Assembly: GCA_010909165.1 (NCBI GenBank)
Contig: VJWM01000186.1
Span: 1 to 64,000, forward strand
DNA length: 64,000 bases
Direction of reading: 5' to 3'
From: Anthoceros angustus
Lineage: Eukaryota; Plantae; Anthocerotophyta
The notes under the pieces are model-generated. The model saw only the letters and a program-made list of their open reading frames with translations. It did no database searches and had not been told where the DNA came from. The position numbers and the translations under genes were made by a program. Of the stretch, positions 5,380 to 58,474 are shown in pieces (position 1 is the stretch's first letter; the number at the start of each line of letters is the position of its first letter).

Positions 5380-6290
5380 AGCAAGGAAGGCAACTTCCTT
5401 GGACCTCGAAATTCGCGCGCATGCAGGAAGGCTATATATGCATCAAAAGGGGGTTGGATATAGCAAATCAAGTTTGAATGGTGGCACTGATGGAGCCACG
5501 TAAGCGGACGCTTGGGGCGCACAAATCATCAAGATTTGCATGTACTGCAAACCCTTGGTTAGCCAAGGTTTGAATTTCCTTGGGGAGTAAAGCTGGAAAT
5601 ACTGGCGGCTGCGAGCGCAAGGAGCTCCACCAGGTCCACAATTTTGTGTTGAGACACACGATGGTTCTTGACCCCTTCCTACAGCTTTACAACGAAGAGT
5701 TAATGGAACTTGATGGTGATGAAGACAGGCAATCTTTCCGCGCGTGGGTTCATGTTGGCAGGGATTCTGGAAGGTGGGAGTCATTTGTACTTTTGACTGC
5801 TGATGTTGTGGCCATAATGGATGGGCCTTCTATTTCGGCGACTACTTACAGGCACATGTGGAGCAATGCTAGCCACCTACGCACTTTTGCAGCAGATGAA
5901 GACCGTCGCGCCACGCAGGACAGCGGAGTTTGTACAAAGTATGTAATGGGAGACGGTGTACAGCGGACATACTATGGCAATGTAGCGGAAATAATTCGAA
6001 AAGTCTTTGCAGCTGATTCGAGCCATTGGTCCTGAAGGTCAAGTGGTTTGAGTGTAATCCAAGTGGGAGATCCCAATCCATTCACGAAACTTATGGTGGA
6101 TTTGATCTCGTGTTCACCGGAAGGCACTGCAAGTATGTTGCAGATGGGGTTGACACCCCTTTCATATGGCCACATCAAGTTACCCAATGCATATTTCATG
6201 CTGATGCACAGGCGGAGAATAGAGGCTGGGCTTTAGCGGTGCCCACGCCTGCGCGTGGGTGGAGGGAGAGCGAGTCGACTGAATAAGGAC
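5380..6290 (+). mobile_element. CACTA (En/Spm) transposase C-terminal fragment (DUF4218/DUF4216-like), frameshifted
   Basis: MQEGYI near 5420; TQDSGV...YYGNVAEII (5580-6035); VLKVKWF...PFIWPHQVTQCIFHAD...GWALAV (6026-6286). These follow the CACTA TnpD C-terminal pattern. Confidence 0.8.
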
Positions 6291-6969: not shown

Positions 6970-8335
6970 AACAGATTCTGACCGACTGGAGTCTTGAATG
7001 CAAAAACCAAATGGCAAAGGGTGGGAGGGAGGAGACAGAGCTAGGGGAAGGTCCTCCTCAATCTGTAGGTCCAACATAACTTGCAACTACTGTGGCAAGG
7101 TTGGACACATTGCGAGGAACTGTTTCAAGAAGCAAAGGGACGAGAAAGCAAGACCTCAAAGCAACTGTCAAGACTTTGATGAGGCCTTTGTGAGTACACA
7201 TCACCACTCAAATGAAGTCGACAGTGGTATATCAATTCAGAGCTTTGGAGCATATGACCAATAGGCGTGAATGGTTTCACTCTTTCAAACCCACTCCACC
7301 GCACCTAACATTTACTTGGGTGATAATTCGCTCAAAATGTGAGGGAGAAGGAGTTGTATTCTAACCATGACCACTCCTAAAGGGCCTATTCTGGATGTTA
7401 AAGAAGGTCCTCTATGTGCCAGCCTGAGCAAAACCTCTTCTCCGTTAGCGACTACCTCTCAAGGGTTGAGAGTGAGATTTGAGGAAGCTGGAGTGACCCT
7501 CACGAATGCAAAAGAAGAAGTGAGAGCACAAGGAGTGAAGGTTGGAAAGATGTATTGTTTAAGTGGGAGTACTATGGTGCCAAGCTCAAGAATGGAGGCA
7601 AATGTGGTACAAGAGCACAACAACAAGCTACTATTGTGGCACCAAAGATTGGGACACCTTGGAGTTCAAAACCTTCACTCAGACATCTGTGGCCCCATGA
7701 AGACCACATCTCTAGGAGGGGCCAAGTATTTCCTCACTTTCACAGATGACAAGTCAAGGTATACCAAGGTTTACTTCCTCAAATCCAAGGATGCCTGCTT
7801 ATCGAAGTTCAAGGAGTACAAAGCACTTGTGGAGAATCAAATTGGTAGAAAGATAAAAGTTTTCAGAAGTGACAATGGAGGTGAGTATATGTCCAAGGAT
7901 TTTGAAACTTTTGCAAGGAGCACTAATCATGCAACAATTTTCGTCCCTTACCCTCAGCAAATTGAGTTGCGAAAGGAAAATAGAACTTTGGTAGAATGTG
8001 CTAGGAGCATGCTTCATCATCAATAATTGGGCTATGAGTTTTGGGGAAGCCATTGCAACCACGCTACCTAACTAATAGAAGTGCAAGTGCATCACTAGAG
8101 GATATGACACGGAGGAATGTTGTTAGGAATATTTCTATTGCTTACTTGCATGTTTGGGTGTAGAGCCTTGCACATAAACCCAAAGAAGTCAGAGCAAGCT
8201 CGAAGGGAAGGCATTGGAGTGCATTTTTGTGGGCTATGATATTGATAGAAAGGCCTATAGATTGTATGATAAGGCATCTAGGCGCATCATCATAAGTACA
8301 GATGTGGTTTTTGATGAGGCGGAGACTATAGGCGG
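6970..8335 (+). mobile_element. pol: Ty1/Copia fragment (family Copia-A): gag zinc knuckle, protease, GAG-pre-integrase, integrase
   Basis: CNYCGKVGHIARNC; LWHQRLGH; HSDICGP...FTDDKSR...RSDNGGEY (ORF 7367-8026). Internal deletions and frameshifts present. Confidence 0.92.
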
Positions 8336-8337
8336 AG

Positions 8338-9356
8338 ACTCATAGCCCAATTGTTGATGATGAAGCATGCTCCTAGCAAATTCTACCAAAGTTCTATTTT
8401 TCCTTTCCGCAACTCCATTTTGCTGAGGAGTGTAAGGGGCCGAAAATTGTTGCATGATTCCGTGCTCCTTGCAAAAAGTTTCAAAATCCTTGGACATATA
8501 CTCACCTCCATTGTCACTCCTTAAAACTTTTATCTTTCTACCAATTTGATTCTCCACAAGTGCTTTATACTCCTTGAACTTGGCATCCTTGGATTTGAGG
8601 AAGTAAACCTTGGTATACCTTGACTTGTCATATGAAAGTGAGGAAATACTTGGCCCCTCCTAGAGATGTGGTCTTCATGGGGCCACAGATGTCCGAGTGA
8701 ATCAAATCTAGCACATGGTTAGCTCTACTTCCTCCCTTTGAAATGGAAATCGATGTTGCTTTCCCATCATGCAACCTCTACAAATACCTATATCTTCCTC
8801 CTCTCAAGCTCAAGTCCTCTTACCATCTTTTTCTTTCCATGAGCTTGATGTTTTGAACTCCAAGATGTCCCAATCTTTGGTGCCACAATAGTAGCTTGTT
8901 GTTGTGCTCTTGTACCACATTTGCCTCCATTCTTGAGCTTGGCACCATAGTACTCCCACTTAAACAATACATCTTTCCAACCTTCACTCCTTGTGCTCTC
9001 ACTTCTCTTTTGCATTCGTGAAGGTCACTCAAATCTCACTCTCAACCCTTGAGAGGTAGCGCTTAACGGAGAAGAGGTTTTGCTCAGGCCCGGCACATAG
9101 AGGACCTTCTTTAACATCCACAATAGGCCCTTTAGGAGTGGTCATGGTTAGGAATACAACTCCTTCTCCCTCACATTTTTGAGCCGAATTATCACCCAAG
9201 TAAATGTTACTTGCAGGAGTGGGTTTGAAAGAGTAAAACCATTCACGCCATTCATTTGAAATTTCACAAGTTGAAGTTGTTACCACCAAATTTGGAAATG
9301 ACTTGTAGTGTCACCATGCCTTGGGTGTGTGGGCCCATAACCTGTTGAGATTGGAA
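8338..9356 (-). mobile_element. pol: Second Copia-A copy in opposite orientation: LTR end, half-tRNA PBS, gag start (deleted), protease, integrase
   Basis: ORFs 8255-8557, 8788-9015 and 9029-9289 mirror 7265-8040. 9262-9356 is the reverse complement of 55525-55620 (TTCCAATCTCAACA-GGTTATGGGCCCA-gag). PBS at 9330-9342. Confidence 0.9.
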
Positions 9357-9394
9357 TCCAAGGGTTGATCCAGTGTGGAATCCAAGGGTTGAAT

Positions 9395-10050
9395 CCTGTG
9401 TGGATCCAAAGTGTCATCTACATAGCGCATTTCCGGTATCGTCAACTGCCGGTGATGCCTCAGGGTTGTCACACTGCTCACATTTGTCCAGAAGCTCCGC
9501 ACCCAGTGCGCGTACGAGCCTGTCTGCACGGCATCTATGATAAACTCCTCCCCCAACCAGCTCCTGAGTTGCTCATAGTGTTTCCTGACATACTCACGCT
9601 TGTCGAACGCACCACACATTTTCGAGCACGTACCAGTAGGTTGGGTTAGTCACCTGTACTTCCCGCAAAATCCGAATGACTTCCACTGCCAATTCCATAT
9701 CATTGCCAGCACCACGACCGGCCCTTGGAAAGGTTTTGCACTCCCATCCTGCAATCAACGTATCCACGGGGCACCTGATAGCTTCAATCTGTCGTTTCCC
9801 TACCAGCAGGATGTTTGAAGGTAACCTGCTTTGGCATCCTTTGATTGCCTCCCTACTCAACAACTCGGGGTTTTCCTTCTGCAACCGCATGATTCTGGCC
9901 CTAGCCACCGCATGCGCCCTCTCATCCAGCTCGACACATGTATACTTTCTTACCTGGATTCCACTCTTCAACACTGCCTCTAGCCCACTGCTGATCCCAG
10001 AACATAGTTCCATGAGATGGATTCCCCGACTGTCCGCTCTCTAGTGAATT
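9395..10050 (-). pseudogene. DNMT3-like C5 cytosine methyltransferase, N-terminal part (motifs I-VIII), inside Gypsy Pol
   Basis: Motif I GIHLMELCSGISSG, motif II VELD, motif IV LIAGWEC, motif VI VLENV (ORF 9594-10013). After a frameshift, motif VIII IDAVQTGSYAHWVRSFWTN (ORF 9311-9619), cf. DNMT3A IDAKEVSAAHRARYFWGN. Confidence 0.88.
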
Positions 10051-10154
10051 ACCTCATTGTTGATCTGCAACTTAGTCGGGTCCAAGATCCGTAATTTGGG
10101 CAGATGGATTTCTGGGCATAGACTGGTCACAAGACACCTCCGGGCGTGCTCTTG

Positions 10155-11450
10155 TCAAATGCGTTCTCTTGCCAACGCCTGTGCTAATTGCCGGGTGTTC
10201 CTTACCTGCACACAAACACCCGTCCTGCGCCCACACGGTGTTTCTTCATTTGTCAGTTCTTGGGTTTCTTCCCATACCTCTGCCCTGTGCACACTCTCTA
10301 CTATGCATGCGGTGACTGTCATCAGACTGCCCGGCTTTTCACCACTCCTCTTCATGTTGAGCGGAATCCTGGCTGTGCGTGAGAAGTCCTCGTCTCGCCA
10401 TCGCGGTCTGTAAAATGCCACCGAGTGCAGCGGATCTACTCCCATCGCCGGTCCATGTGTGGCATCAGCAACCAGCAATACATCATAATTCCTTGCATTA
10501 GACACCAGACAATGAACCTCGATGACCGAAGCATCTTCGGTGCCTGGTTTGAATTCTATGCGAATCGGATCCCGACTGACCCCCATCACCTGCTCTTTGG
10601 TACCCGCAGAAGTGGTGATGCGCACCTCACATGGCCTCAATCTGTCTCCGTATAGCTGGAGTGCCTTCTGCACACGGGCACCAAGCAGCACCAGGTCTGC
10701 ACCTGTATCCACCAGCACACATTCCGGGGCAAAACCATTCACGGTGACATCTCGACCTCGATTATCCACCATGGCGACTCCCCCTTTTCCTCGAGCAGCT
10801 GGTTTCAAGTGCTCACCGCACAGACTAGTGAACCCAGACATCACGTCAACCTCTGCGAATGCCTCTTTCATCCAGGCCTGCATTGCCTGCTTGAACGGTT
10901 GCACCTTGACTCCCAGATCGCGCAGGCTGACCATGGGCACATCCATTGCCTTGTCCAGTAAGAGCTCCATACTGGGCGGTTTTCTTTTTGAGAGGTTCAT
11001 GGACTCAGGGTCCTCCAACTGCCTGAAGGACTTGGGCATTTTGAGTTGATTTCTTTCCCCAATCCTTTTCCCTTTGACACCTTCCCCCATGTCAACGTCG
11101 CCTTTCATACCAGGGGCCACCCCCACGGTCATCAACGCGTACACTTCTTGGTCCGAGTCATACTCTTCCAGGGAAATGTCTGCGGTTCCCGATGTGCTTA
11201 CACTCATCGCCAACTGTTCTTGCAGTCTGTGCACCTCACTTAGAAGCGCCTTTCGGGTGTAGCCCACCGTCGGTTTCATTTTGTCACCCACCCGATCCCC
11301 AACTCCTTTGGGCTTGAATTCTAGGTGAGCTTGCCAACATGCTGCCTCCGTGTGACCTGTCTTGGCGCAGGTCTTGCACACCTCTTTTTCCTTAGCTCCA
11401 CCAACTCGATACTCGCACTCAAAGGCTTTGTGTGAACCCCTGCATCGCAA
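10155..11450 (-). CDS. pol: Ty3/Gypsy gag C-terminus (two zinc knuckles) and aspartic protease
   Basis: CLRCRGSHKAFEC and CKTCAKTGHTEAAC knuckles; protease VLVDTGADLVLLG; 431-aa open frame directly upstream of the MTase. Confidence 0.85.
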   Translation of the reverse strand: MRCRGSHKAFECEYRVGGAKEKEVCKTCAKTGHTEAACWQAHLEFKPKGVGDRVGDKMKPTVGYTRKALLSEVHRLQEQLAMSVSTSGTADISLEEYDSDQEVYALMTVGVAPGMKGDVDMGEGVKGKRIGERNQLKMPKSFRQLEDPESMNLSKRKPPSMELLLDKAMDVPMVSLRDLGVKVQPFKQAMQAWMKEAFAEVDVMSGFTSLCGEHLKPAARGKGGVAMVDNRGRDVTVNGFAPECVLVDTGADLVLLGARVQKALQLYGDRLRPCEVRITTSAGTKEQVMGVSRDPIRIEFKPGTEDASVIEVHCLVSNARNYDVLLVADATHGPAMGVDPLHSVAFYRPRWRDEDFSRTARIPLNMKRSGEKPGSLMTVTACIVESVHRAEVWEETQELTNEETPCGRRTGVCVQVRNTRQLAQALARERI

Positions 11451-11455
11451 GCACT

Positions 11456-12412
11456 TTACTGGCCGCTTGGTGGCCGACAGACTGCTGGACGCCCGATGTG
11501 CAAATTTCTCCGTAGAGCATTCCCTTGTGGCTGGTCACGATGGGAGCCCCTTCCTTGTAGCCTTTGTGTATTCGCGGCATGCTGATGCCCTTTGACGAGA
11601 TTATGTTCTTCCCAATACGCACTGGTCACAGCGTCTCCTTTCATGACCCTTTCCGCCATTTCATAAGCCTGCTCCAACTCGTAGTCTGCGCCATGCAGCA
11701 TGTGGAGAAAGTTGGCGATCACCCTCCTCTGTCTACCTGGAAGGGCGGCTATGTAGATTTGTGCGGCTTCTCGCATAGTCTTCACTGTGTCCTTTACCAA
11801 ATTTTAATCTCGTGACACGCTCAAGGGGCTCATTTAATGGTGAATCGACGCCTCCTGAATCTTCTCTATGGAAGATACTGGAAACATCTCTGCGAATCTG
11901 TTGAACATTTCATCCACCAGGTATGTGATGGCAGCCGCTTGCGTCGCACTGGATGTTTCCTCCTCTTCATCTCCTTTCGCAGCCCTTTTGGCTCTGTTTG
12001 CCCTCGCCAGGGACCGAGCATCCTGCAGAATTTGATCCTTGCAATCACGATAACACGTCAGCACCTCTCCTGCCAAGAATGTGCTCATCTTCCTCAGCGC
12101 CATCTCCGGGGTAAATTCCGACTTGTACTTGAGCACCATCTCATCAATTGCCCATCTGAACTTTTCTTCAAAGTTAGCAAGTGACATGCTGCCATGTCGA
12201 CCCGTGAATACATCATTCTTGCTGGGGGCTGCCTCATACTCCATCCTTACCTCACCACTGTTCTCTTCAAACTTTAGGGAGCGAATGGGGCTTCGATTCC
12301 ACTCAAACTGACCACCGACCCTGCAAACCGAAGGATATTGAGCAGCGGGACTGCGAGATTCCTGCACCGGGGTATTCTCGTTTGTCCAGCCCAAGCGCAG
12401 GAGCACCATCAC
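11456..12412 (-). pseudogene. gag: Gypsy gag capsid region of the MTase-bearing element (frameshifted)
   Basis: ORFs 11834-12412 (DVFTG...ANFEEKFRW...FLAGEVLTCY) and 11456-11800 lie in the gag position and orientation upstream of the knuckles. Confidence 0.6.
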
Positions 12413-12770
12413 ACGTCAATCTCGCCCCCTGCGTGAGATTATGTACGGCATTGCATCAAAGTTAGTGCTGGTACCTCCGTTCGTCCAGTCTGCTAACTAG
12501 GCCAACTTGTCAATAACTTCATCCCACAGCCTCCGCCACAGGTATGCAGGGTCTATCTCTGCCAGCACGGCCAGCTCAGAGATGGGACGGCCAGCATAAA
12601 ACAGCAAAGAGAAATCCACAACGTTCTCTTCGGAATACACCATCTACTTAGCTTTCGTCGGCAACCGTGGGCCCTCTTCGCAACGTATGTTGAAACACTT
12701 GGGTCTTCCACGAGCTCTTCGATGCTGGCAGTCGCAATGTCGAGCTCCAGAAGGTAGGGATTGCTAATGT

Positions 12771-13218
12771 GCAAAAGTCGATCACGTCCCCTTTGGGCCC
12801 GTCCGTCGATACCCCCCCTTTTTCTTCCAAGAGCCTCGCATCCACCGCCACTCTAGGAGCTGTATGGCTGTCCTTCCAGCCGAAAAACATCAGCAATCCG
12901 CCTCTCCTCGCGGATCGCTGCCCTTTTGACGACCCCCGCTTGGCGCCGTCCGCGACTAATCACGGGCGATCCACTTGGGAAGCCCGCGGCGCCGTCCGTG
13001 ATTCCGGTAGAAGCCGTAACCTCGCCGTAATTACATACAGCTTGGCGCTTCATGCTCGGCTTCTGTCTTTCGACTTGTTGCCGTGTCAAACCTCATACGC
13101 ATCGGAGATGGGCATACACATGCCCATAACAATCCATGCACATGAGCATGTGATGGTCACGCACACCCCGCATGCACACATACCCATTGCACTCTCTAAC
13201 ATCCTATTTGCCATGACA
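12771..13218 (-). repeat. 5' LTR-like repeat A1 of the MTase Gypsy element
   Basis: Starts TGTCATGGC on the minus strand at 13218. High identity (few substitutions and indels) to 50273-50728. Confidence 0.75.
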
Positions 13219-13239: not shown

Positions 13240-14685
13240 TTGGTTGGACAATTTACCTGCAGCAAGGGAAGGGAGCGCAAGTGCACCGAGCTCATCTGGA
13301 CTGAGGATCATGAGCGGAATCGGAGTAGGAGGGGGCTTGCAACAACCCCACAGTCGCCAGCAGTATGTCAAGTTTGGGGAAAAGAAAGGCTGACGACGCA
13401 GGCGTTGGCAAGCACTTTGAGCATGTCTCATGCTAACCGGAGGATACGGTTGCCGATCGGCTGCGCATCTTTCTTGGATTGCTGAGAGGGCATGCCCAAA
13501 GAAGCAGGCTGAGTCAATGGTGGCAAGTGCACCCGTAGATTGGGATTCTTTGAAGACTGCCTTTCTGAATCATTTTCGGGGTCTCAGTTACGCTCACCAC
13601 ATCCTGGCAAAATTGAGAACTCTCGATAGGAAGAAGAGGGAGTCCTTGTTTGATTATGTTGAGAGGTTCTATGGCTACTTAGATGGAGTGCCGAAGTGTG
13701 TGCCTATGATGCCGGGAAATCCACCCACATCAGGATACTCACAAGAGCAAGCGTTGGACTGGTTTGTGAGTGGGTTATCTCGAAAAATGGAGGTACACTA
13801 CAAGCGAGGGACGAAGACGTTGGCTGGAGCAATCCGATTAGCGGAGGAGTGGGAATCGGCTGAGCTAGGAAGGAGGAGGAAAAAGAGACGGAGTCACAAG
13901 AAGAGGAAGGGGTCCAAGAGGTCTAGCTCTTCTTCTTCTTCCTCCTCTTCCACTCATCCTCATCTTCTTCTTTTGAAAATGAGGAGAGTGGTACCCAGGA
14001 GAGCTCCACATCAGATGAAGAATCCGAGAAAGCCTACGAACGACGCATGAGGAAGGACTTGGAGAAAGTTAAGAAGAGGCAGGAAGAAGTTGAACGTGCA
14101 CTGAAGAAGGAGAGGAAAGAGAAGACGGTTTGACGGATGGAGAAGGGGGAAACTTCCGCTGCAGGAGGGGGGATTGCAAGACAAGTGGAGGCTTTGACAA
14201 AAAGATTGACAGAATTGGAGGTCAAGGCTGTGAAAAATCAAGCTCCACGGAGGTCACCTTCACCTGCAAGACAGTTGGTGTATTGCTCAATTTGTCATCA
14301 GACAGGACACACCAACCGGGAATGTATTTGAGCACCGCGGCATGTTGTGAATCACGTGGAATCTGTCATGCCTGGTGATTATTGGTACGTGGATGAAGCT
14401 TACCAAGTGCAGGTAGTCACTGGAAGTCGACCGCCTCAGTCGATGAGGGCGACTTACCAACCTGCAGTACCAGTCGCTGTGAGGTATGGATCACGGCCTA
14501 CCTCACTAGGACCATGGAGACCAGAACCGTCACAGAGGCCGATGGCAATTCCACCTGGGTGCTGCTACAATTGTGGGGCACCTGGTCATTATTCGAATGA
14601 TTGCCCAGAACCTCGAAAACAAATGGGTTTTGTACCTTTTTGTCAAGTATGCAAGGAGTTGGGGCACAAGGTTGGCGATCTGTAA
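13240..14685 (+). pseudogene. gag: Ty3/Gypsy gag with three zinc knuckles
   Basis: WDSLKTAFLNHF...ESLFDYVERF...WFVSGL (13430-14050); CSICHQTGHTNREC, CYNCGAPGHYSNDC, CQVCKELGHKVGD. Confidence 0.85.
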
Positions 14686-14830
14686 ACGATCTGGTATTGG
14701 AAACTCCTATTGCCTTGTGATTTTTTTTTTTTTTTTTGCTAAGTTTGGTGTCAAGAAGAGCTGGGTTGTTAGTAGGAAGGAATATTTATAGCATAAGTGT
14801 CCTTAGCCTATGGGTTTGGGTTGTTTCCTA

Positions 14831-16759: not shown

Positions 16760-18840
16760 GAGGGTGAATCTGGAGCCAGATTGACACAAGGTCAAAGGAA
16801 GAACCAAGCTCCATGGAGGTCTCCCTCGCCAACAAGGCGACGTTGGTGTATTGCTCAATTTGCCATCAAATGGGACACACCAACAGGGAATGTATTTGTG
16901 CACCACGAAACCATGTGGTCATGCCCTGGGACTATTGGTATGTGGATGAAGCTTACCGGTGCAAGCGGTCACCGTAAGTCGGCCACCTCAATCCATGAGG
17001 GCAACTTACCAACTGCAACACGACCCTCGAGGTATGGATCGCGACCGCCGCCAGTCCATGGAGGCCTCGATCCATCACGAGCCGATGGCGGCAATTCCAC
17101 AAGGATGTTGTTATAATTGTGGCACACTAGGACATTACTCGAATGATTGCCCAGAACCCCGAAAGCAAGTGGGTTATGTGCCCTTTTGTCAGGTATGCAA
17201 GGAATTGGGGCATAAGATGGGGGATCCCAGGTGTTCGGGGGTGGCGCGAGTGGCACCAACGCGACTGTGGGGTCGAGGTTCACGGTCATGGCGGAGGAGA
17301 CACGAACCAACCTCAAACCAAGGACATAAGAACCACGACGCCCATGTCAAGGTAGAATAACACGATTTCCTCGACGACTCGCATGTGACATCGTGAATTG
17401 TGGAAGGGTACGAGGAGAGATGAGCGGATGAAGGATTGATGGTGGCCAAGGTGACCACGCCGACGAGAAGGATCAAGGTGGAAAGAGGCGTGGCCACGAG
17501 GAAGAACGGAAGCGGAGGAGGGTGAGGGATGACTTGCCTTGGCCTCCGGAGACGCGGGGCACCCAGCCGCGCGAGGAGGGGGAGGAATGACCCCACCCTA
17601 CCGGGGTAGGGCGTATCATCATGCAGGTCCGGCACTCTGAGGGTAGGCGGGCACCTCGGTAGGGCGGAACGAGGAAAAGCTGAATGAGGGGGAGGAATGG
17701 TCTACGTTTCCGCCCGATATCAGCCGCGAAGTGGCGGCAATGCTGGAGGAAGAGTTGAAGCGGCTCACCCAACATTCGAGGGAGAAGGGAGCGGAGCCAG
17801 ACATTGTGGAGCCGCCGGGTATGGAGTCCCACCCGACTGGATGGACCGCGGATTCGGGAAGTTTACCAATAAGGTCGGAATCAACTAGCGTCAGGGCTGT
17901 AAACGGGGAGGAAACCTTGTCGATAAAATCTTGATTTGACACATTGCTGATCACAGTGGTCAACTTGAGGCAGCCATGAAGTCAAGGTCCCAAGATTGTA
18001 AAGGAAGCGATGGGGCATCCACGAGGCTATGGGGACGAGACGGCGTGGAGGTGAACGTGGGTAACTTGTTGATTTGGGGCACCCGAGATTGAGGTTGAGA
18101 TTGGATGTTTGGTGCCCAATGTGCCATTGATTCGGGATCGAGTCAACTTGATGACTGAGAAACGACTCATCAACTTGGGTTCACCAAGTTTCATCCGTCC
18201 GAGTATTTTTGCGGATACCGACCAAACAAGGAGGAAGCCACCGAGTGAAAGCGGAATGCCCAACCTGTGATTGAGGTCCTGCCTTCCACCTCACCTACAT
18301 TGTTATGAGGCCCGTGTCGGATTTAGGCTATAAGGTTTTGATAGGCGACCTTGGCTTATGGTACCTCTTGTGTCTTTGATTTCGTGAGTGGCGTCACCTT
18401 CAAGTAGGGAGGGACTGCGAGGTGGCTAGTCGTGTCATGGAGCAAGGCACCATGAGGAGGGGAGTCCGCGCCGGTCCGATGGGTACACCTCGGGAAATGC
18501 GGGTAAGCTCCTCCAAGGACAGCCAGACCCTCGGTTGAGGTCGGTGAAATAAAGAGTGATTTGGTGCATTCACGCTGTATGTAGAAGATGTCGTAGAAGA
18601 GTCAAGGATGAGGCACATAGGGAAGGAGTAGCCTTTTGGAGGGGTAAGGCCTATGATCGTGATTTTCCGAGGAGGGATCCGGAACTAGTGCGGTCAGGAG
18701 GGACATATGTAGACCCCGACAGTAGAAGACTTGGAGTTAGAACCTAGCAAGATAGTCAAGGTTTCTAAGCATCTAGGATAGAGAAAGAGGAGTTTTGTAG
18801 TGTGCTTAGGGAGTATGTCGATGTGTTTGCCTTCAAGATT
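16760..18840 (+). mobile_element. pol: Gypsy gag knuckles, protease and pre-RT linker remnant (second copy of the 13240-14685 family)
   Basis: CYNCGTLGHYSNDC and CQVCKELGH (16959-17360); frameshifted protease IDSGSxVNLMTE near 18120-18160; linker KIVKVSKHL...LREYVDVFAF near 18750-18835. Confidence 0.7.
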
Positions 18841-19517
18841 CTTGTGGCGCGACTTCGATAGCGGCATAATCCCGTGTTGTTGTACTAAGGGTCCGCTCCC
18901 AAGAGAATGATGGGCTCCGTTGTCGCCGATCGCGACTGTTTCGGACTCAAAACACATACGTTTATCGCTTCCATGCTATTACCCGTGATGTCCACCGAGC
19001 AGGGCTTGAGGAAACGTTTAAGACCTGCTTTGCGTCCGTATCATTCCATCGTCTCTCATACTTCTAGTCTGTCCTCTTACCACTCTCGTTACACTCATCT
19101 AAAATCACTCACGCCAAAATCTCCACATCTCGCGACACTCAACGTCCTTGAAAAAATGGGCGGGCTGTGGTCGGACCTCTCTCCGTCATTCACTGGGCCT
19201 CTCCATCCGGCTCTACACGCCTCCCGGAGTTCCTCCGCTCACCTGCCCGGCCCGCCAACGTTATTCGCTCGCGACGAGCAAGGGTCCCCTTGCCGTCGTC
19301 TGCACACCATATGTTAGGTCCGTCACGGGACCCGGATCCTCTCCGAGCGCCGTGCCTCCCGGTGACTCAGACTCACGTTAGCGAAGACGACAAGGGTCCG
19401 TAAGGAAGCCAGGCATCAACACCAAGAAAAGATCCTTTACTAGAGCAAACTCAGCCCTCTTATACTACGCCCAAGGTTGGCATCTTTATTACACTCCTAT
19501 TCTCGAAAGGCTACCAA
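18840..19517 (-). repeat. Probable LTR (family Y-related), continuing at 25381-25920 and split by the Copia insertion
   Basis: 25480-25650 is the reverse complement of the conserved block at 43460-43660 and 57470-57660. A TATAAGAGG-like box near 19460 resembles the one at 57712. Confidence 0.4.
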
Positions 19518-19522
19518 GGCTA

Positions 19523-22500
19523 TGTTTATTTTGCGAGGAGCAAAAAACAGACTTTGTAAAAATGATTCAACAAAAGTGTGTTGAACAAATACATATGGCC
19601 TCACTATATATGTAACTCAAAACAGGTTCACATGACCAACCCTAACTAGCCGCACCCTTTTATATTTAACACTCCCTCTAAAGGTAAGCTAGGTTAGGTT
19701 AAACGCGTTCACACCGCCTGAAAACCACGCCCGACTTCACGCTGTACCGTGACGCAAGCCTAGCGTAAACTCCCGCCGCCATAAGAATCCTCCACCATCC
19801 TCTTTACCATTTGCATGCTTCGTTATGCCTCTTCATCTCGAGCACTACTCCACGCAGAGCAATCGAAAGCATGAGAACTCGAAGGGAACGAGCTACGAGT
19901 GCCACAAGTGTATCGAGAAGGAAAAGGAAGGAGAATCCATGAGAGGATTCGATCACGCATAATCACCACCAGGGACACCATGTCCCACACTGGAATGAAA
20001 TTGGTAGTGTGTCAATCGCTACGCCTAAACATGGTCCTTTGCCGGGTCGAGGCGAAGGACGGAGGAGCAAGAGCATCAACGGGATGCGCTACTCCATACA
20101 TGCGCCCCAATCTTGGCCGCCAAGCTAAAGATGGCCATGGAAAGAATAATGAGTGGAGCTTATCTTTGGCGGCACCACCGCCGGGTGACAAAGAGGATGT
20201 GAAGCGCTATATGAGAGAAGTATCGCGTTGCTGTGAGATTAGGTCTTAAGGTAAGCTTCATCCTCCTCGCAAGGCGTCCATCTCCCTCTTCGTTTCACTA
20301 ACGAAATGTGTGGTGTCGCACTCTGTGTTCCTCCAAGGAAGACCGAGGCACAACACACCCAAGGGAACCTTCGGGTTCCCACCCCACCCCACCAGATTAA
20401 GTTATCCGAAATACTTGGTATAGCCCGTGCCTAGCCACGAAAGATGTTGGTAGTTTATGCTTTGCCAATCCTTTCGTTAGCACGGACGTTAGAATTGTGT
20501 GCACATAACCCACCTTCACGACTCCACGCTCCACTACATCTCTAATGTAGTGATGTTGAATTTCTATATGCTTAGTGCGGAAGCGCGTGGATTAGCGACA
20601 AGGGCTATGTTATCACACATGATAGGTGTCTGGTCTGTCGAGGTCATGAAGGAAGGTCCTTTCCCATTCACCTCCTTTGAAGCTCAATGATTTGTACGCT
20701 CATGGAAGATGGCTATGGAAGATTGCTTTACACTTCACCAAAATAAAGAAGGAAGATAATCAGTGAAGGGTGAGTGTCTCCTCCGATAGAAGAGTCCATA
20801 ATTGTGGGTTCCTTTGAGATAGCGGAAAATGGCTGACAAGAGCCAATGTGTTCTTCCCGGATTCTCGAAATTGTGATACTATGCTTACATCGGATATCCG
20901 CCTTGTCCTTCGCTAAGAAGATTAGATCCAATCGATGTCTCAGGGGACATCCTTCATGTCCTTAATTTCTTCCCGGGATTGTGGGCACCGGAGACTGGTA
21001 AGTTTCACATAGCGAAAGGAGTAGTCGAGGGTCTAGCTGTTTGAACTTGCGCAAAATGTCATTGATATATTTATGGTGAACTATCGAGCCCTTCCTCTCG
21101 CCTTAAGATTTGAACTCCCAACAGATTTAAGTTCTCTGTCTTTCATCTCGAACTTGGTACTTAGCTTATGCTTAACATCGCCTTAGAGTGTTCTTGTTAG
21201 GCAAGAATGACATCGTCAACATATAGGGCTAATATGACGGCCGCTCGATCGAGTCGGTAAACATTAGAGTCTGCTTTGGACAAAGGATATCGAGGTGAAA
21301 TATGCATAGTGATATACCATATTCGCCACTTTGTTTTAGTCCATATATACACTTGAGCAATTTAAGCACTTTGGTGGGATGTTCGGGATCTTCATATCCT
21401 TCAGTGTGCCATATACAGTCTTCATCCAGGTCTCCATAGAGGAAGGCTGCACACATCCATTTGTCAGAAGTCAAGGTTCAACTCTGAGCCGCAGATGCGA
21501 ATGGATTGTGCTCGAACAAGGTGAGAATGTTTCTGGTAATCTAGGCCCTCAACTGGTAAATCCTCTTGCCACCGTGGCTTTGTATCCGCAATCTCCCTTT
21601 GGAGTTTAAGTTTAAAAACCCACTTACAAGAGATGGCTTTGCGTCCGGTGGGAGGTCGATTTGCCGTCTTGTTCTTGAGCAAAGATTGGTATTCATCCTC
21701 CACCGCACCGCCACTTGGAGCAACTGGGCCATGGAGGGCTTCCTTGTATGATAGGGGTTCCTCGGAGGATATTCGTATAGCACCAAAAGCCAAGATGTCA
21801 AAAATCGATGGATTGATAATAGGGTTCTAACCATCGGTCCGAGGTGGCCTATGGCGTGTGGAGCGTCAGAGGGTGGTTCAGAGCGAGTCCTCGAATGCCG
21901 AACGGTCCGGTGACATCCTCCTCATCACCGAATTTGAACTATCATTTGCGGTGAGATCATCTGTTGGTTCACCCGGGTCACTGTAGGGTGAGGGGCAACA
22001 ATGGGGAGCCTCATGAGTCATCTACATCTGCAGATGGAAGGTTAGGGGTTCTTCACGTCATCCGTAGGGAAGGTGACGATCAAAGCTTTCATTTGCATCT
22101 ACTCCCTCTAAAGGGTTAGAGGGTGTGGGTTGGTAGTCGTGTGCAAAGGTTCTACGAAGGTGACACTGCGGCAAGGACTAATGATTGAGTGTCGGGTCAT
22201 AGAGTTTGTACGCTTTCACATGTTCACTGTACCCCACAAAAGTAGGCGTTGGCCCTCTAACTTCTTGCGTTTTCACAGGAATATAGGCGAAGGCCTTGGA
22301 TCCAAATACTCGGAGGTGGAGCAAACTAGGCTTTCGATGCGAAAACCTCATAAGGAGTGTCCGGATGTGGTAAGTATCCTGTTATATATATGGTCGTAAC
22401 AATGCCTCCGCCCAATACTCTTGAGGTAAGTTGGCATGAAGTAGCATCCTCGGTCATTCCAAGTAGCGTCGATTTTCGTCAGCAACTCCGCATTCGTTGT

Positions 22501-25375: not shown

Positions 25376-25919
25376 TGCTAGCCACTACTATCTCCCTTAT
25401 TCGCTATCGATGCCGTCGGGCGTGGGGCTGAGTTGCCCTGGTTCCACCTTGGGTGGCCCAAGCCCTAGCCCTCGATGTGGAACGTAAAGTTTGGGCAACA
25501 TTCCAAACGAGCCGAGGATGAGGGTCGATTTTTCTTGGTGAAAACAATTGAAGAGGGACATGTTGGGAATTTTCCGAGAAGCTTGGAGTCGAGTTGTAGG
25601 ATATTGTTAGGAAGGCAGAGAGGATATCGGGAAAAGAACGGGTCAAAATGACCCCAGACGAGTGTAGGCACCGAAAGGACGGTAGGTCGCCACACTACTG
25701 AGGTGAGCAAAAGAGTAGACTACCGCAGAGGCTAGCAGACTACGGGTAGGTCGAGCGACTCGGCCTAAACGGAAATTAGAATAAAGGGGATATCCACTAT
25801 ATATGCCTACCAATGGGGAAATAGATAAATAAGATTAATTAGAAGGTCCTTAGTTAGGGTAGCGGATAGGATAGGAAAATAGGCGGTTTAGGATTAGGTA
25901 TTTTAGAATGATCAACCCA

Positions 25920-27103
25920 ATCTAGGGTTGTGAAGCCTCAGTGGCGGTCATCCAAGGAGGGCAAAGTGCGCTTTGAAGCGCCAACTTCTTCGAGGAACGC
26001 CCACACTTCGTGAAGGACTGACTAGAGTCGGAGTAAGCCAAGGAGAAGGAAAAGAGTGACATCGCCATCGCTATCGCCGCCCAACTCGCGAACGAGAGGA
26101 AAGTGCCGAGAAAAGAGAAAGCCCTAATCGAGGCGGAGAAGAGGAAGGCATCCAACATCCCGGATTGTGGGAAGTTTTCTTTGAGTTCTGCAATCAGGAG
26201 AGCCAAGCCGGAGTGCCGGAAGTGAGCTCAAGACGGAGGCAGGTTGGAGCACCGAAAGCGTGAGGACCGGAGGTCGAAGAGCAGGAAGGAGCCCCACGGT
26301 TGCTTCACCGCGCGCCCGGAGGAGAAATTTAGAGGGGAATTGGCACTGAGGGCTCAAGCCGTGGCTAATGTGTACTTGTGCCTCAGTTGGATGTCGTTGC
26401 GGACAAGGAAGGAGGTTTGGGAGTGAAGCTTTGGAGCCCTCAACGCTTGGAATTGGGGAGTAATTTCTTCCTTAGAAGCGCTTGAGAGTGAAAAGGCGCC
26501 ATGCCTCGGCTGGAAAAGGCAAGGGAAGGAACCGCTAAGGGTTCCTCCTCACGAGGAGGAAAAGGAAAGAAGGCAGCAGCGAGGCTACCGCCAAGAGGGG
26601 TGAAGTCGAGATGCCCCAATTATTGTTTCAGGGCTCAACCCCGATTTGGTCGATTAAGAATGGGCGTAAGAAGACAACATCCAATTGGGATGGGTGTATG
26701 GCGCCAATGGGCCTACACCAATTTGGAGTTGATTGAGGAGTGTTACATCAACCTCCATCAATCAACCTTGCCACAGCAGAGGGAATGCTTGATCCACGCT
26801 GCTGGACGGTCGACCACAAGTGTATGGAAGGCGGAGGAGGAGAGCTCAGAATTGCTCTCGAGAGGACAAATGGAGGGAAGAGGATTGCCCTCTCGAGATT
26901 CCGCAGAGGTCCTCGATATGATGGATGGAGGAGTGAAGGCCCATGCCAAGAATGGATGGAAGGCGGATAGTATCAAGGAGCTGAAATGGAGGCTCTTTGC
27001 AAAGATTGTGTTGGGGTTGGTGAATTACCAGCGGACTTCTTACTTTGGCACCAACTGCAATTTTTGTGGAAGATTTCGAGGAGCCAAGCCGCATTGGGAC
27101 AAT
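25920..27103 (+). pseudogene. TE accessory ORF (family Y-related), basic N-terminus plus DWG-type domain, truncated
   Basis: ORF 26501-27112 ends GWKADSIKELKWRLFAKIVLGLVNYQRTSYFG...GAKPHWD. It reads away from the AT-rich LTR-like block at 25381-25920. Confidence 0.55.
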
Positions 27104-42800: not shown

Positions 42801-42938
42801 GGATTTCCGCCTCCTTGCGAGCTTGCGCCTCCTTCTCCTCAACAGGCGTGTACGGGCGCTGCTGTATGGGGCCTTGGGAAGCTTGAGGTGTGGCGGCGCC
42901 CGCCGTGAGGCCGCCTCAAGTTTCGAGTTGTGGCCTCC
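30812..42938 (+). repeat. ~12.1 kb direct duplication of 17578-29723, including a second copy of the complete Copia (32738-38590, minus)
   Basis: Identical ORF translations at a constant offset of 13,215 from ~18250 to 29723. 29715-29975 also copies 16099-16357. Confidence 0.95.
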
Positions 42939-50132: not shown

Positions 50133-50728
50133 GCATGGAATCAAAGGTTTCATATCCAAGCCATAATCTACCCTAACGCACACCTCTCAAGCACATCCGT
50201 AAACGACAAGTAAACGACAATGTTCTACGCTAAACACCAAAGACTGATAAACACCAAAATGACACCAAAATGGCAAAAGTCGATCACGTCCCCTTTGGGC
50301 CCGTCTGTCGATACCCCCCTTTTTCTTCCAAGAGCCTCGCATCCATTGCCACTCCGGGAGCTGTATGGCTGTCCAACCTGCCAACAAACATCAGCAATCC
50401 GCCTCTCCTCGCGGATCACTGCCCTTTTGACGAGCCCCGCTTGGCGCCGTCCGCGACTAATCACGGGCGATCCGCTTGGGAAGCGCGCGGCGCTGTCCGT
50501 GATTCCGGTAGAAGCCGTAACCTCGCCGTAATTACATACAGCTTGGCACTTCATGCTCGACTTCTGTCTTTCGACTTGTTGCCGTGTCAAATCTCATATG
50601 CATCGAAGATGGGCATACACATGCCCATCACCATCCATGTCCATGCACATGAGCATGTGCCCATGGTCATGCACACCCCGCATGCACACATACCCATTGC
50701 ACTCTCTAACATCCTATTTGCCATGACA
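50133..50728 (-). repeat. LTR-like repeat A2 (50273-50728) plus repeat B2 (50133-50273)
   Basis: A2 matches 12771-13218; B2 matches 50755-50896. Confidence 0.8.
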
Positions 50729-50730
50729 GC

Positions 50731-51535
50731 TGTCGCGCCATAGCTGCATAGCGGGCATGGCACCGAAAGGTTTCATATCCAAGCCATAATCTACCCTAAC
50801 GCACACCTCTCAAGCACACCCGTAAACGTCAAGTAAATGACAATGTTCTATGCTAAACACCAAAGACTGATAAACACCAAAATGACACCAAAATGGCCCC
50901 CTTGCCAAAGTCGCAGCCACAAATTGAGCTGGTTGTGGCAGCACTTTGGACACTTAAATACCGTAAAATCGCCGGTAGAATCGCCTAAACTTGCTATCAC
51001 GTAGTTGAGGCTCCGATGGTTTCTCATGCTCCAGGCGTCCTGTGGCCAGAAGGGCCGCCACCCGCCGTTCCTCGGGATCGAAGTACTCATCCACCTGGGC
51101 CTTTCCTAATCACTGTCTTTCCCTGGCATGGTGTCGAGCCATCATTTCTTCTTCTTCATCGCTGTCTAGTTCTGTTTTGACCCTGGGAAGTTTTCAACTT
51201 GGCATGTTTCATGGTGTGATTCCATATACAGCAAGAAGGCCTGTAACTCCAGGAAGGTCTCTAGCCGTTCAGGCTTGCCAGGTTGATATTTACGTATCAA
51301 CGGGGTGCGCCACTTGTCCTCCCATGGCCGTTCAGGAAATTGTGGCACACTATGGTGCATCCTACGGAAACATGTCTTGCATGTGTGGTCTGCGTCCAAG
51401 TCCATGTTTGCCAGTTATTTGCGATGTTAAGCTACTAAACTTGCCAGGCCCTCCGACAACGCTCCTACCACCCTAGCACCACCGCTGCTTAACACTCATC
51501 ACTACGCTGGCTAGACGCCACCACCGGCCATGACA
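50731..51535 (-). repeat. Candidate 3' LTR of the MTase element (TGTCATGGC...GCGCGACA) containing repeat B1 and a small ORF
   Basis: TGTC/GACA termini; shares its first 9 nt with A1/A2 and its 3' ~140 bp (B) with 50133-50273. No clear PPT. Confidence 0.4.
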
Positions 51536-52098: not shown

Positions 52099-54840
52099 TT
52101 AACTCTTAGAAGCCGCGTCCGCGGTAAGCCATCCATACGGCCCCCCAGCCACTGTACCGGATCGCGGGAGGGCACATTGGTGACAATGCCACTCACCATC
52201 TGGTATCACCGTGAGTGGAGGCCGTAGGCAAAACACATGATAGCCCCGATTACATTTGTCACAAAGTATCATTAGCTCCGGGTCCGTGATGTGACCACAA
52301 AATTCGCAAGGCAAGTCAATCGATGGCTTCCAAGCCTGTGGCTGTGTCCTCGTGTCTAAGTTGGGCAGGTGACACGGTGCCAAGTGACGCATATGCTCCT
52401 TACAATGTCATCCATCCTGTCCTTCCAATTCAATGACACCCTGCTCACCCACACTCACCACCGTATCAGACATTACATCCAACGGCTCAAGGCGGTCTGT
52501 AAGTAAAAGTCCCCACTTCAAACTTCCTCGCCTTGGGTTTCCATGAGCCACCTCGCGTAAATGCATACCGGAGTTGGTCTCGGTGTTGTGCGATTGCTAA
52601 GTTGTCCATCGCCATTGGGATTACTCGCTGAAACAGCGTGGCTCGGTTTTGCAACTCCAAGAGACACTCTTCTGGATTCTGTGCCCAGTCTACCGGTTTG
52701 GAATAGGTATCAGCCACAATATTTGGCATCACAACGTTCCGTCCAAACATGATGTAATATGGGCTGAAGTTGCCCAGTGCATCTTGTACACTGATCCTAT
52801 ATCCCAATGCCACATGTGGCAACAACTCATCCCAGCAGCCGGGTTCAACCTCAGTGCAACATTTGCGGAGAGAATCCTTGAAAGTTTGTACTAACCATTC
52901 AGCCAACCCGTCAGCTTGAGGATGGTCCCGGGATGTGCGGCGGTGATCTATCAGCTTTGATCCAACAATGCTTGGAATTCACCACGAAACTCGTTGCCTT
53001 GGTCCGTCAATACTTCCGCACAGATCCCATATCTGCTGAGAACACACTGTAGAAATGCCTGGGCCATGTACTTGGAGCTTTTGATTGGAAGAAAAGCCAA
53101 CTCCACCCACTTTGAGAAGTGCTCTATCATCAACATGCAGTGCTTGTTGCCCTATCTTGTCACTGGCAGTTCATGCATCTGATCAACAGACCATCTAAAA
53201 AACAATCCCTTGATAGGCAGCGAATGTAATACCACATCCTGGCTGTTAAACCTTGCCTTCACTGCATCGCACGCAGCATCGCGCCACCACCTGTTCCACA
53301 TCAGCATACATACCTGACCAGAAGTATGTATTCTTCAGCATGTGATGTGTTCTCTTGACACCAAAATGCCCCAGCGTTTTGTGCACCTTGGTCACCAATG
53401 GTTTTCTTTCTTCCACGGGTGGCACCTCCTTGCTCACCCCTCGATCAATCATAAACACCTTACCGTCCTTGTATGTATAGCGAGCGATTCTTTGTTGTAA
53501 CTTCTGAAGAGCCATTGCATCCAAACCAGCTACATGCCCATCCCGCAACAACTGAATGGCACACTTGAGTTTCCATATGTCTCTACCCCCTTTTGATAGC
53601 TGTTGTTCGCTTCCTGGTTCCATGGACATCAATGCCAGGTACACGCTGGGCACGTGCTGAGTAAACCCGAAGTCTTGTCTGGCCCCAATGGTGTTTCCTG
53701 CCCCACACATCGGATTCCTGCTGAGCCTGTCGGCATTGAGATGCACCTTCCCTGCCCGGTGCACAATCTACATGTCGTGTTCTGACAACAGCAAAGCCCA
53801 TCTAGCAAGCTTCCCGCTCAGTTTCATATTTGTCATCAGCCAGTGCAATGGCTGATGATCCGTGACTAGCTGAAAGCTTCGGCCAAACAGATATACTCTA
53901 AAATGTAGAACCGCCCATATAGCAGCGAGACACTCTCCTTCATAGGACGAGTAATTGGCCTCCGCCGTGTTGTTAGATCTGCTCGCATAGGCGATGACCC
54001 GCTCTCTTCCTTCCTCATCAGTCTGTGCAAGCACGGCTCCGATGCCTACTGCAATGGCTGATGATCCGTGACTAGCTGAAAGCTTCGGCCAAACAGATAT
54101 ACTCTAAAATGTAGAACCGTCCATATAGCAGCGAGACACTCTCCTTCATAGGACGAGTAATTGGCCTTCGCCGTGTTGTTAGATCTGCTCGCATAGGCGA
54201 TGACCCGCTCTCTTCCTTCCTCATCAGTCTGTGCAAGCACGGCTCCGATGCCAACTGCACTCCAATCTGTATACAAGACGAAGGGCTTGTCAAATTTGGG
54301 CCTTTTAAGCATTGGTCTCTCTGCCAATTGTTCTTTTAACTCCTGCCATGCTTGCTCCTATTCCTTCTCCCATTGCCAATGGGCTTCCTTCTTGAGTAAC
54401 TCGTACAATGGCTTGCAGGTTCCGCTCATGTTTCTGATAAATCGGCGATAGTAATTCACCAGCCCCAGGAACGCTCTCAAGGCGGCTACATCTTTAGGTC
54501 TGGGCATAAGACTCACCGCTTGTACTTCAACTGTGGTAGCACTCCCCCTGGTACAATCTTATGCGCCACGTACTATATCTCCCTGTACGCGAATTTACAT
54601 TTCCTTGGGTGGGCCTTCAACCCAGACTTGGCTAGTCGCTGCAGCAGCACTTCTAAGTGTTCAAGGTTTCCTCCAGACTATTGCTGAATACTAGAATATC
54701 ATCAATGTAGCACTTGACAAACGACAACCCTTGTAGTTCCAAGTCAGCCACTCGTTGAAAGTATATGGATGCATTCTTCAAGCCGAATGGCATGGTTTCC
54801 CACTCCCACAGCTGCTCTTTGCCGTCCTTTCGGCACATGG
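52099..54840 (-). pseudogene. pol: Gypsy pol 3' half: RT (N-terminus deleted), RNase H, integrase, C-terminal PHD finger
   Basis: MPFGLKNA...YIDDILVF; YTDWS...VIAYASR...YEGECLAA...TDHQPL; HKTLGHFGV...CVRC; TDQGNEF...QADGLAE; PHD CEFC...CDKC...H..C...CHQC (52174-52308). Confidence 0.93.
53844..54255 (-). repeat. 206 bp tandem duplication within RNase H
   Basis: 53844-54049 repeated at 54050-54255 (ORFs 53768-54034 and 54046-54327 are nearly identical); ACTGCA-like microhomology at the junction. Confidence 0.9.
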
Positions 54841-55170
54841 CCATATGTATGGCCAAGCCCACACTTACCAGCCATCGCATACAAGCTATGTCGAAGGCTT
54901 GCCCGATCAACCTGCACCGGAATGATTCAGACACACCAGGTGTGAGAGTGCCACCTGCGCCAAACCCCATGGCCCGTTCTCGCTCTGTTATTGTAGGCTC
55001 CCCTACTTCATTTCCGTTCGTGTCCAGCACCATGCCTTCTCCTCCTTTAGGGTTTCTTCTCCATATGACTGTATGGTCCTGACGAGTGTGGGCCATGCCC
55101 TTCTCGGTTTTCCCACCACGTTCACTGGGTAGTGTGGCAACTTATCTCCCTTGCGCACTTGCTGTGAGCG
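54840..55170 (-). pseudogene. DNMT3-like C5 MTase C-terminal part (TRD end, motifs IX-X), in frame with RT
   Basis: QQVRKGDKLPHYPVNVVGKPRRAWPTLV, frameshift, then EPTITERERAMGF (IX) and RCRLIGQAFDIACMRWL (X; cf. DNMT3A RQRLLGRSWSVPVIRHL), running into RT in ORF 54653-55096. Confidence 0.85.
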
Positions 55171-58345: not shown

Positions 58346-58474
58346 GGCAGTCTCCTTGCTGCTAAGGTATGACATGCAATTGTGTTGTGTCATTGTAGGT
58401 CGAGAATTGTTGAATTTTCGGAGCAGTGCAGGTGGTGCAGCTGCTGTAAGGGAAAAATTAGTGGGCGTCTTGCT

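Follow-up and report, generated by a model that had tools for sequence, protein, structure and literature searches.

The 64,000 nucleotides of Anthoceros angustus contig VJWM01000186.1 analysed here (the window) carry on the minus strand, in two pieces at 9395-13218 and 50133-55170, the remains of a Ty3/Gypsy retrotransposon whose coding region includes a cytosine methyltransferase of the DNMT3 type. Our reading, in which we have fair confidence as a whole, is that this is a dead copy from the Gypsy-DNMT3 lineage, whose members likely prime their own reverse transcription, open a circle with two long terminal repeats (LTRs) and methylate their own complementary DNA (cDNA). In relatives, the domain order is found together with a repeat layout A-coding-B-A-B, TG...CA ends and 4-bp target duplications; the family-level conclusions are independent of whether the two window pieces are one copy. 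The element belongs to the KnitGypsy-Dnmt3 lineage of the alga Klebsormidium nitens, a kind already known, and the capture of a DNMT3 by Gypsy elements is not new, because it has been published for one alga. This is an old and broad lineage, some natural copies of which are nearly intact and could serve in assays.

The two pieces in the window

The repeat, gag, two zinc knuckles, DTG protease and methyltransferase motifs I, IV, VI and VIII that the original prediction had described were all located on the minus strand of 9395-13218. This first piece begins with the 5' copy of repeat A (12771..13218, 448 bp), whose initial TG at 13218 marks the left end of the element and which shares its first seven bases with repeat A of relatives from an AT-rich family. 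The LTR-like repeat of the prediction does exist, but it is the A part of A-coding-B-A-B and not an ordinary LTR. The primer-binding position (12758..12770), which is no TGG transfer RNA (tRNA) site, pairs with a predicted 13-nt self-primer inside A (12887..12899), which precedes the end of this repeat by 116 nt and is complementary to the bases just after A. The gag (11456..12700), interrupted by stops and frameshifts, is recognized by its match to the relative P0003 (42% and 52% to the N-terminal part), and two atypical Cys/His zinc knuckles (11337..11453) are recognized by sequence and aligned in P0002 and P0003; a Pfam scan gave no match for the broken gag or for the knuckles. The aspartic protease (10380..10760, DTG at about 10709) matches PF13650 (E 1.4e-4, with a score under that model's cut-off) and PF13975 (E 5.3e-4), as well as P0003 (61%). 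It is in one frame with the methyltransferase, two in-frame stops lying between them at about 10155 and 10041. The methyltransferase (9395..10037) extends from motif I to motif VIII: motifs I (10010-9996), IV (9752-9738) and VI (9626-9615) are in one frame and motif VIII (near 9535-9485) is in the next, with a frameshift near 9612. At 9395 the Gypsy sequence ends in a break (9331..9394), where 38 filler bases with short internal repeats lead to the LTR end and primer site of a Copia element; the sequence at 9256-9356 is 97% identical to 55525-55625. Thus the placement of the methyltransferase between protease and reverse transcriptase (RT), as originally proposed, holds for relatives and with the second piece (55170-50133), but no RT follows at 9395.

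Self-comparison of the window revealed that repeat A recurs at 50728-50274, flanked by two copies of a repeat B. In the minus-strand sequence upstream of this second A (55170-52099), the methyltransferase is completed by its last third, and a truncated RT, RNase H, integrase and PHD finger come after it. The second piece starts beside a 24-base filler adjoining a Copia LTR. It continues with the remainder of the methyltransferase, motifs IX-X (54860..55170, one frameshift), the C-terminal part only of RT (54361..54859; PF00078, E 1.3e-8), the spacer and the N-terminal part being deleted, RNase H with a 206-bp tandem duplication (53768..54357; PF17919, E 9.8e-33; PF17917, E 5.4e-33), a frameshifted integrase with H2C2 zinc domain and D,D(35)E core (52487..53420; PF17921, E 1.5e-14; PF00665, E 1.9e-8) and, at the end of pol, the PHD finger (52174..52308; PF00628, E 9.2e-12). 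The RNase H piece had no match among viral contigs. The stretch of 1.2 kb that separates the PHD finger from the polypurine tract (50907-52098) has no Pfam match in six frames; in the AT-rich family this distance is about 65 nt. The polypurine tract (50897..50906) adjoins repeat B1 (50731..50896), which ends with CA; the internal B-to-A junction (50722..50735), CA-2 nt-TG within a 10-bp palindrome, is a predicted integrase attachment site. Next come the 3' copy of repeat A (50274..50728) and repeat B2 (50133..50273), which is 96.9% identical to B1 and has no last bases. The two A copies are 94.8% identical over 446 aligned columns.

A methyltransferase family profile of 327 positions, built from 26 relatives, is covered by the first piece at positions 3-151 and 150 to about 221 and by the second at 222-258 and 261-323; since coverage ends at about 221 in one piece and starts at 222 in the other, the two are complementary and meet at one point. 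A six-frame search of the window with the same profile found no match beyond these two pieces. At both break points filler is joined to the same Copia family. Moreover, in separate trees the sister of each piece is a Logan protein, P0157 (support 0.96) for the second and P0002 (95/90) for the first, and the longest listed contig is 7980 for both, suggesting that they represent one element. The simplest reading is that of one copy, broken within the methyltransferase and then rearranged. That they are instead two copies, or were set 46 kb apart by an assembly error, is unlikely, though it deserves real weight: the order is permuted, with the 3' piece first on the minus strand, the fold-backs, the 12-kb near-perfect duplication and the indel-rich differences of the window are typical of noisy long-read assembly, and no target duplication was found for the window copy, whose B2 is without its last bases; yet the pieces abut at codon resolution, with neither gap nor overlap, filler and the same Copia family occur at both junctions, and the A and B pairs are similarly diverged (5.2% and 3.1%), mostly by transitions. 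Frameshifts in the window may partly be sequencing noise.

Class and conservation of the methyltransferase

Searched against the PDB, the family profile ranked DNMT3A first (E 7.9e-29), followed by DNMT3B and DNMT3C; DRM-type and HhaI enzymes were lower (1e-12 to 1e-15; DRM2 1.9e-12, HhaI 6.7e-13), DNMT2 lower still (7e-6), and neither DNMT1 nor CMT was among the 60 matches with E up to 1. An AlphaFold model of a Closterium protein, P0012 (CAI7850249.1), which carries the motif IV variant WEC of the window, had a mean predicted local distance difference test (pLDDT) score of 81 (51 rows), and all 31 Foldseek matches listed for it were DNMT3B or DNMT3A, counting one DNMT3C, with TM-scores of 0.80-0.83 relative to the target. 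Profile and fold ranks thus indicate that the methyltransferase is of the DNMT3 class, as the motifs had led the original prediction to propose. The first piece by itself remains under the cut-off of PF00145 (17.8 against 22 bits, E 0.0024), the check proposed for it, but scores 134 bits with the profile of relatives; 29/30 of its ESM Atlas feature matches are PF00145 clusters. Single-sequence searches of the PDB gave only weak (E 0.13, a cytosine methyltransferase) or chance matches, and a word-based search for the 148-aa piece among longer proteins matched 0/718 candidates.

Motif counts were made on 79 complete domains, near-duplicates included. The motif IV cysteine is present in 78/79, preceded by Glu in 39/79 (EC type) and by Pro in 34/79 (PC type, for example L002:3772-4743), so that the proline is replaced in 45/79; the other family residues are the Glu of motif VI, ENV (76/79), and the two Arg of motif VIII, RxR (76/79 and 74/79). 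The cysteine is found in 39/39 EC-type domains, and C, E, R and R are all retained in 36/39 EC-type and 32/34 PC-type domains. Both types occur in architectures with the methyltransferase upstream and in those with it downstream of RT. The suspicion that WEC is a family signature and not the decay of one copy is borne out by these alignments, in which it is a family variant, and the retention of the catalytic residues in the EC type argues for activity. With the EC variant, the need for the 'invariant' proline of motif IV can be examined in natural proteins.

Several lineages place a stop codon behind the methyltransferase. In the metagenome locus L002, a frame of 1369 aa encoding Gag, protease and methyltransferase ends with TAG CAG TTA (L002:5083-5091), and RT, RNase H, integrase and PHD finger follow in the same frame; TAG CAA is found at a like place in L035, L039 and L077, and in L019 TGA CGG occurs ten codons past the methyltransferase domain. 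UAG CAR YYA and UGA CGG are among the read-through contexts listed in PMC13517186. In the 23 protease-methyltransferase proteins compared, 6/23, including that of K. nitens, end 8-9 residues past the domain and 7/23 run into RT; the AT-rich family has no shared stop between methyltransferase and RT, and the window copy has lost this region. Hence the description of the methyltransferase as part of Pol fits those lineages in which the domain runs into RT, but not the several in which it ends the Gag-protease frame before a stop. In the stop-bearing lineages the enzyme would be produced at Gag levels, suiting an action inside the particle.

Repeat layout, ends and priming

The metagenome loci were chosen by RT and RNase H alone, as the best 80 of 536, and some of them are the same insertion in different assemblies; ends and junctions were counted in one AT-rich family among them. 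Where both ends are visible, 10 elements of this family are A-coding-B-A-B and 5 are A-coding-B, with A starting with TG and B ending with CA; two of the five A-internal-B elements have a perfect 4-bp duplication. Two complete LTRs flanking the coding region were not found, the layout being A-coding-B-A-B, which is complete in 10 relatives and is present in the window if its two pieces are taken as a unit. The 4-bp target duplication has no mismatch in 7/15 elements and one mismatch in 5/15; registers of 3, 5 and 6 bp do not fit. The relatives combine these ends, and a 4-bp duplication within the 4-6 bp expected of Ty3/Gypsy elements, with a DDE integrase in which D,D(35)E is intact; in the window, all that is left of this set is the left end together with the internal CA-NN-TG and the D,D(35)E residues. 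Pfam matched no tyrosine recombinase, either in the six-frame translation of 50899-52099 or in the four long frames of the near-complete L002, where the rve integrase domain is present.

The internal B-to-A junction reads CA-2 nt-TG in 25/25 junction rows, as well as in the window and in the unrelated L002. Indels are found at the A-to-B junction in 13/24 elements, compared with 0/24 at B-to-A and 4/23 at A-to-internal junctions (Fisher p 2.6e-5 and 0.015). The commonest A-to-B form, an exact A end joined to an exact B start, is present in 11/24, with scattered indels of 1-3 nt besides. A G-rich tract adjoins B1 in the AT-rich family. In the window, the AT-rich family and L002 alike, a CG lies at the right end, three bases from the proposed cut.

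Neither the window nor any of 22 relatives has a TGG tRNA primer site behind A. In the window, the 12-13 bases after A pair with the site at 116 nt from its end (shuffle p 0.005), and a helix of different sequence is found at 114-119 nt in 13/22 AT-rich relatives. In one AT-rich copy inspected, the predicted primer site lies about 30 nt past a TATA-like box. Folding gave pairing probabilities of 1.0 for the window (154-nt leader) and of 0.98 and 0.98 for two chosen AT-rich copies. This arrangement corresponds to Tf1-type self-priming (PMC4600332, PMC6317226). Since paired LTRs and a tRNA site are lacking, structure-based LTR finders would be expected to miss such elements.

A possible route of replication and integration

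The RNA would start inside A, and its first 12-13 nt would pair with the bases after A and prime reverse transcription as in Tf1; this part of the route we regard as highly probable. The two usual strand transfers would then lead to a linear cDNA of the form (B-A)-internal-(B-A), because B directly follows the polypurine tract and A is directly followed by the primer site. The two cDNA ends would be joined imprecisely, making the A-to-B junction anew in each cycle, and the DDE integrase would cut at CA-NN-TG inside the 5' LTR and insert those ends, which converts (B-A)-internal-(B-A) into A-internal-B-A-B. Indeed, the latter is the circular permutation of the former, opened at the B-to-A site of the 5' LTR, and the ends read like a record of DDE-integrase integration from a circle. 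On imprecise joining and on the opening of the two-LTR circle by the integrase, our judgement is evenly balanced. The methyltransferase would be packaged into the particle, in some lineages at Gag levels, and once set free by the protease would add CG methylation to the new cDNA, a step that we lean slightly towards accepting; the PHD finger may read histone H3 at the target. Two-LTR circles are usually regarded as dead ends. We propose, tentatively and with somewhat less than even confidence, that Gypsy-DNMT3 is a widespread streptophyte lineage with a route of its own, for which a two-LTR circle opened inside the LTR is the obligate precursor of integration.

Several observations weigh against this reading. 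The repeat counts derive from the single AT-rich family, in which the window's own family is not represented, and 3/13 altered A-to-B junctions (L017, L028, L055) may be later deletions or A-end duplications; duplications of the same kind also occur at the A-to-internal junction. The priming helix is not at the expected place in 9/22 relatives, and 18/42 AT-rich elements end after a single B, a form that would fit either an opened one-LTR circle or recombination of B1 with B2. These single-B elements include L007, L008, L015, L020, L025, L040, L047, L075 and ten more. The circle would contain two CA-NN-TG sites, but the mirror form A-B-A-internal-B is found in 0/22 elements with a visible 5' end, so that the model needs an unexplained asymmetry. 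Upstream of RT the methyltransferase is absent in 3/57 loci with room for it (L014, L022, L041; from the best 80 of 536). Regarding the enzyme, the window copy is dead and cannot itself be active: the first Arg of motif VIII is Trp, where 76/76 relatives with a residue at that place have Arg, and three residues after the motif IV cysteine are gone. Together with the stops, the frameshifts and the motif IV substitution, this confirms that the copy is disrupted. The proline before the cysteine is called invariant in PMC2965745, which takes its loss to predict inactivity, and the K. nitens domain gave no methylation in yeast, a result that its authors call inconclusive (PMC5890265).

Copying of the PAT/Ngaro type known from DIRS elements would do without a joined circle: the RNA would run from A into the second B, template switches would rebuild the ends, and the integrase would receive A and B ends directly. 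This scheme yields only A-internal-B-A-B, as observed, and SymbioDIRS elements are drawn with the same arrangement of repeats (PMC5890265). We nevertheless find it rather unlikely, since the A-to-B junction would then be inherited, yet its commonest form is exact and the others differ by short indels; in addition, with a polypurine tract at B1 and a primer helix where A ends, it is A-to-B that represents the two cDNA ends, and Pfam matched no recombinase of such elements in the frames searched. As regards the asymmetry of the two-LTR circle, it could come from the built-in methyltransferase: given the CG close to the cut at the right end, strand-specific methylation of the duplex made first might mark the two LTR sites differently; this is a speculation to which we assign only a small probability.

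It is also conceivable, although we think it improbable, that in EC-type lineages, including that of the window, the domain is kept as a non-catalytic module binding DNA or RNA. The frequent replacement of the proline, the inactivity predicted for its loss and the negative yeast result, obtained even with a PC-type domain, are in favour of such a module. On the other hand, the EC type keeps the cysteine without exception and the other catalytic residues as often as the PC type, and both types are found in upstream and downstream architectures. Among decayed copies, dN/dS was 0.069/0.166 (56 non-independent pairs) and 0.043/0.079 (one pair); these values are given little weight, because they are below 1 but mixed with decay after insertion.

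Family and relatives

A protease-methyltransferase query matched 439 proteins at E <= 0.001; 150 of these were listed, 35 were scanned with Pfam, and all listed relatives were mapped against the two window pieces. An RNase H query matched 852 proteins, 120 of which were listed. Two architectures were found. In the first, the methyltransferase is between protease and RT, as in P0042, P0092 and Closterium and Klebsormidium proteins (named members: Closterium GJP34393.1, CAI5973665.1 and CAI7850249.1; K. nitens GAQ93235.1). In the second, a DNMT3-type domain that keeps the catalytic motifs is between RNase H and integrase, with a PHD finger at the end (P0032, P0039, P0043, P0045, P0059, P0063, P0098, P0109, P0128 and P0149); these proteins are a sister group, in which the domain has moved within Pol. 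The order protease-RT-RNase H-integrase typical of Gypsy is present over the two window pieces and intact in P0042, P0274 and L002; in place of a chromodomain, which was not found by Pfam after the integrase, there is the PHD finger. Among the RT-picked loci with room for it, the methyltransferase is upstream of RT in 54/57 and between RNase H and integrase in 0/57, and it can be regarded as the stable part of the element that had been predicted, copies without it being the minority. The domain is intronless and unrearranged, as in the Gypsy-DNMT3 lineage.

A one-off chimera between a Gypsy gag-protease and a fragment of a host DNMT3 gene, which the truncated domain and the absence of RT at the end of the first piece might suggest, was rejected and receives practically no credence, given that the protease-methyltransferase order is common to many relatives, the named Klebsormidium and Closterium proteins included, that the domain is upstream in nearly all RT-picked loci and that it has no introns.

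The window matched K. nitens GAQ93235.1 (knuckle-protease-methyltransferase) with E 2e-21, and the K. nitens gene model next to it is 57% identical to the window RNase H. Among the RNase H matches listed, the named close relatives include sequences of Closterium, of Klebsormidium and of the liverwort Calypogeia fissa, as well as a transcript (P0159) of Coleochaete scutata; for Calypogeia and Coleochaete the RT side alone was observed and no methyltransferase was seen. In the RNase H tree (FastTree, 158 rows, 169 residues) the window groups with P0157 within an upstream-type clade (0.87), which is placed beside the downstream type; P0242 and P0261, labelled as upstream, sit with the downstream type, and the grouping of the window with liverwort and AT-rich elements has a support of 0.61. 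In the methyltransferase tree (53 rows, host DNMT3 genes left out) the N-terminal frame of the window joins P0002. Both trees place the window among K. nitens and Closterium elements, with weakly supported deeper branching, and the repeat layout is shared with KnitGypsy-Dnmt3, so that the idea of a new family, thought possible at first, is not supported. A third homologue search, with 16 matches among 7995 scored, returned no named host DNMT3. One RT-integrase protein of the lineage, P0313 (CAA9586175.1), is filed as uncultured cyanobacterium; it is probably eukaryotic DNA in a metagenome bin.

Comparison with known systems

De Mendoza et al. (2018; PMC5890265) described K. nitens Gypsy elements with a Dnmt3 in the polyprotein, under purifying selection and with DIRS-like repeats. 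These share with the window element the Gypsy domains, the unrearranged DNMT3-type domain and, according to the legend of Fig. 4c, the repeat layout; they differ in the host, in belonging to a distant subfamily (about 32% over protease and methyltransferase) and in being PC type, while the window is EC type. The text of that paper makes no mention of a PHD finger, of the position of the domain, or of ends, target duplications, priming or read-through, although its figures or supplement could show order and ends; PMC12344493 restates the 2018 result. The precedents named in the original prediction were right for the Dnmt3-like enzymes of charophytes; for dinoflagellates, the text of PMC5890265 reports a Dnmt3 carried by DIRS elements and, within LINEs, a DNMT lineage called orphan, and not Dnmt5. 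The SymbioDIRS-Dnmt3 elements of Symbiodinium, as presented there, likewise have a DNMT3-type domain in Pol and the layout A-coding-B-A-B, and their domains produced CG methylation in yeast, but they are DIRS elements with a tyrosine recombinase, whereas a DDE integrase and target duplications of 4 bp characterize the family described here. In the literature searched, which did not extend to subscription journals, Repbase and theses, the end structure, the priming and the stop behind the methyltransferase of the relatives, as well as members from land plants, are undescribed.

In IS3- and IS30-family circle junctions, a DDE enzyme acts on abutted ends inside a circle. Similarly, the foamy virus integrase is reported to cleave the palindromic junctions of 2-LTR circles (PMC1180852). 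In these systems the cut site is formed by the joined ends; in the route proposed here it would be templated and lie within the LTR, and the joined ends would stay behind in the integrated copy. Priming by the element's own RNA, the 5' end of which pairs with the primer site in place of a tRNA, is described for Tf1/Tj1 and Tcn1 (PMC4600332, PMC6317226), which differ from the window family in being chromoviruses with ordinary LTRs, and for which the available text of these sources mentions no methyltransferase. EpiLTRs and DAM-LTRs are Gypsy-type elements with captured DNA methyltransferases (bioRxiv 10.64898/2026.05.21.726589); their enzymes are DNMT4-related or adenine-specific, a chromodomain is present, the captures were separate, and 'streptophytes (Gypsy-DNMT3)' are named as known. 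A PHD finger and 'LTR subparts' are indicated in the legend of Fig. 8 for the active Chlamydomonas element Gypsy-7a_cRei (bioRxiv 10.1101/2022.06.16.496473).

Neighbouring sequences

Other mobile elements surround the two pieces. A broken frame at 5574-6236, without Pfam match, we take by eye to resemble the C-terminal part of a CACTA transposase. Two head-to-head Copia fragments at 6998-9356 form a fold-back (7264-8039 against 8338-9249) with about as many gaps as substitutions, which is either a real inversion or a chimeric read. A direct duplication of 12 kb (17572-29723 and 30810-42938, 99.75%) holds a Copia element with LTRs at about 19522-19671 and 25232-25375 and a coding region full of single-base frameshifts, suggesting a noisy assembly. 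A 286-aa coiled-coil-like frame without Pfam match is present at 59030-59890. Another LTR element has left plus-strand remnants just upstream of repeat A, namely gag (PF03732) and zinc-knuckle sequences at 13421-14791 and 16778-17226. The Copia family present at both Gypsy break points has a plus-strand copy at 55195-58963, internally deleted so that gag is joined to RT, with a fold-back of the right LTR at 58697-58963. Neighbouring Copia sequence is depleted in CG and CHG (0.28 and 0.33), which, together with the named relatives, points to a streptophyte host.

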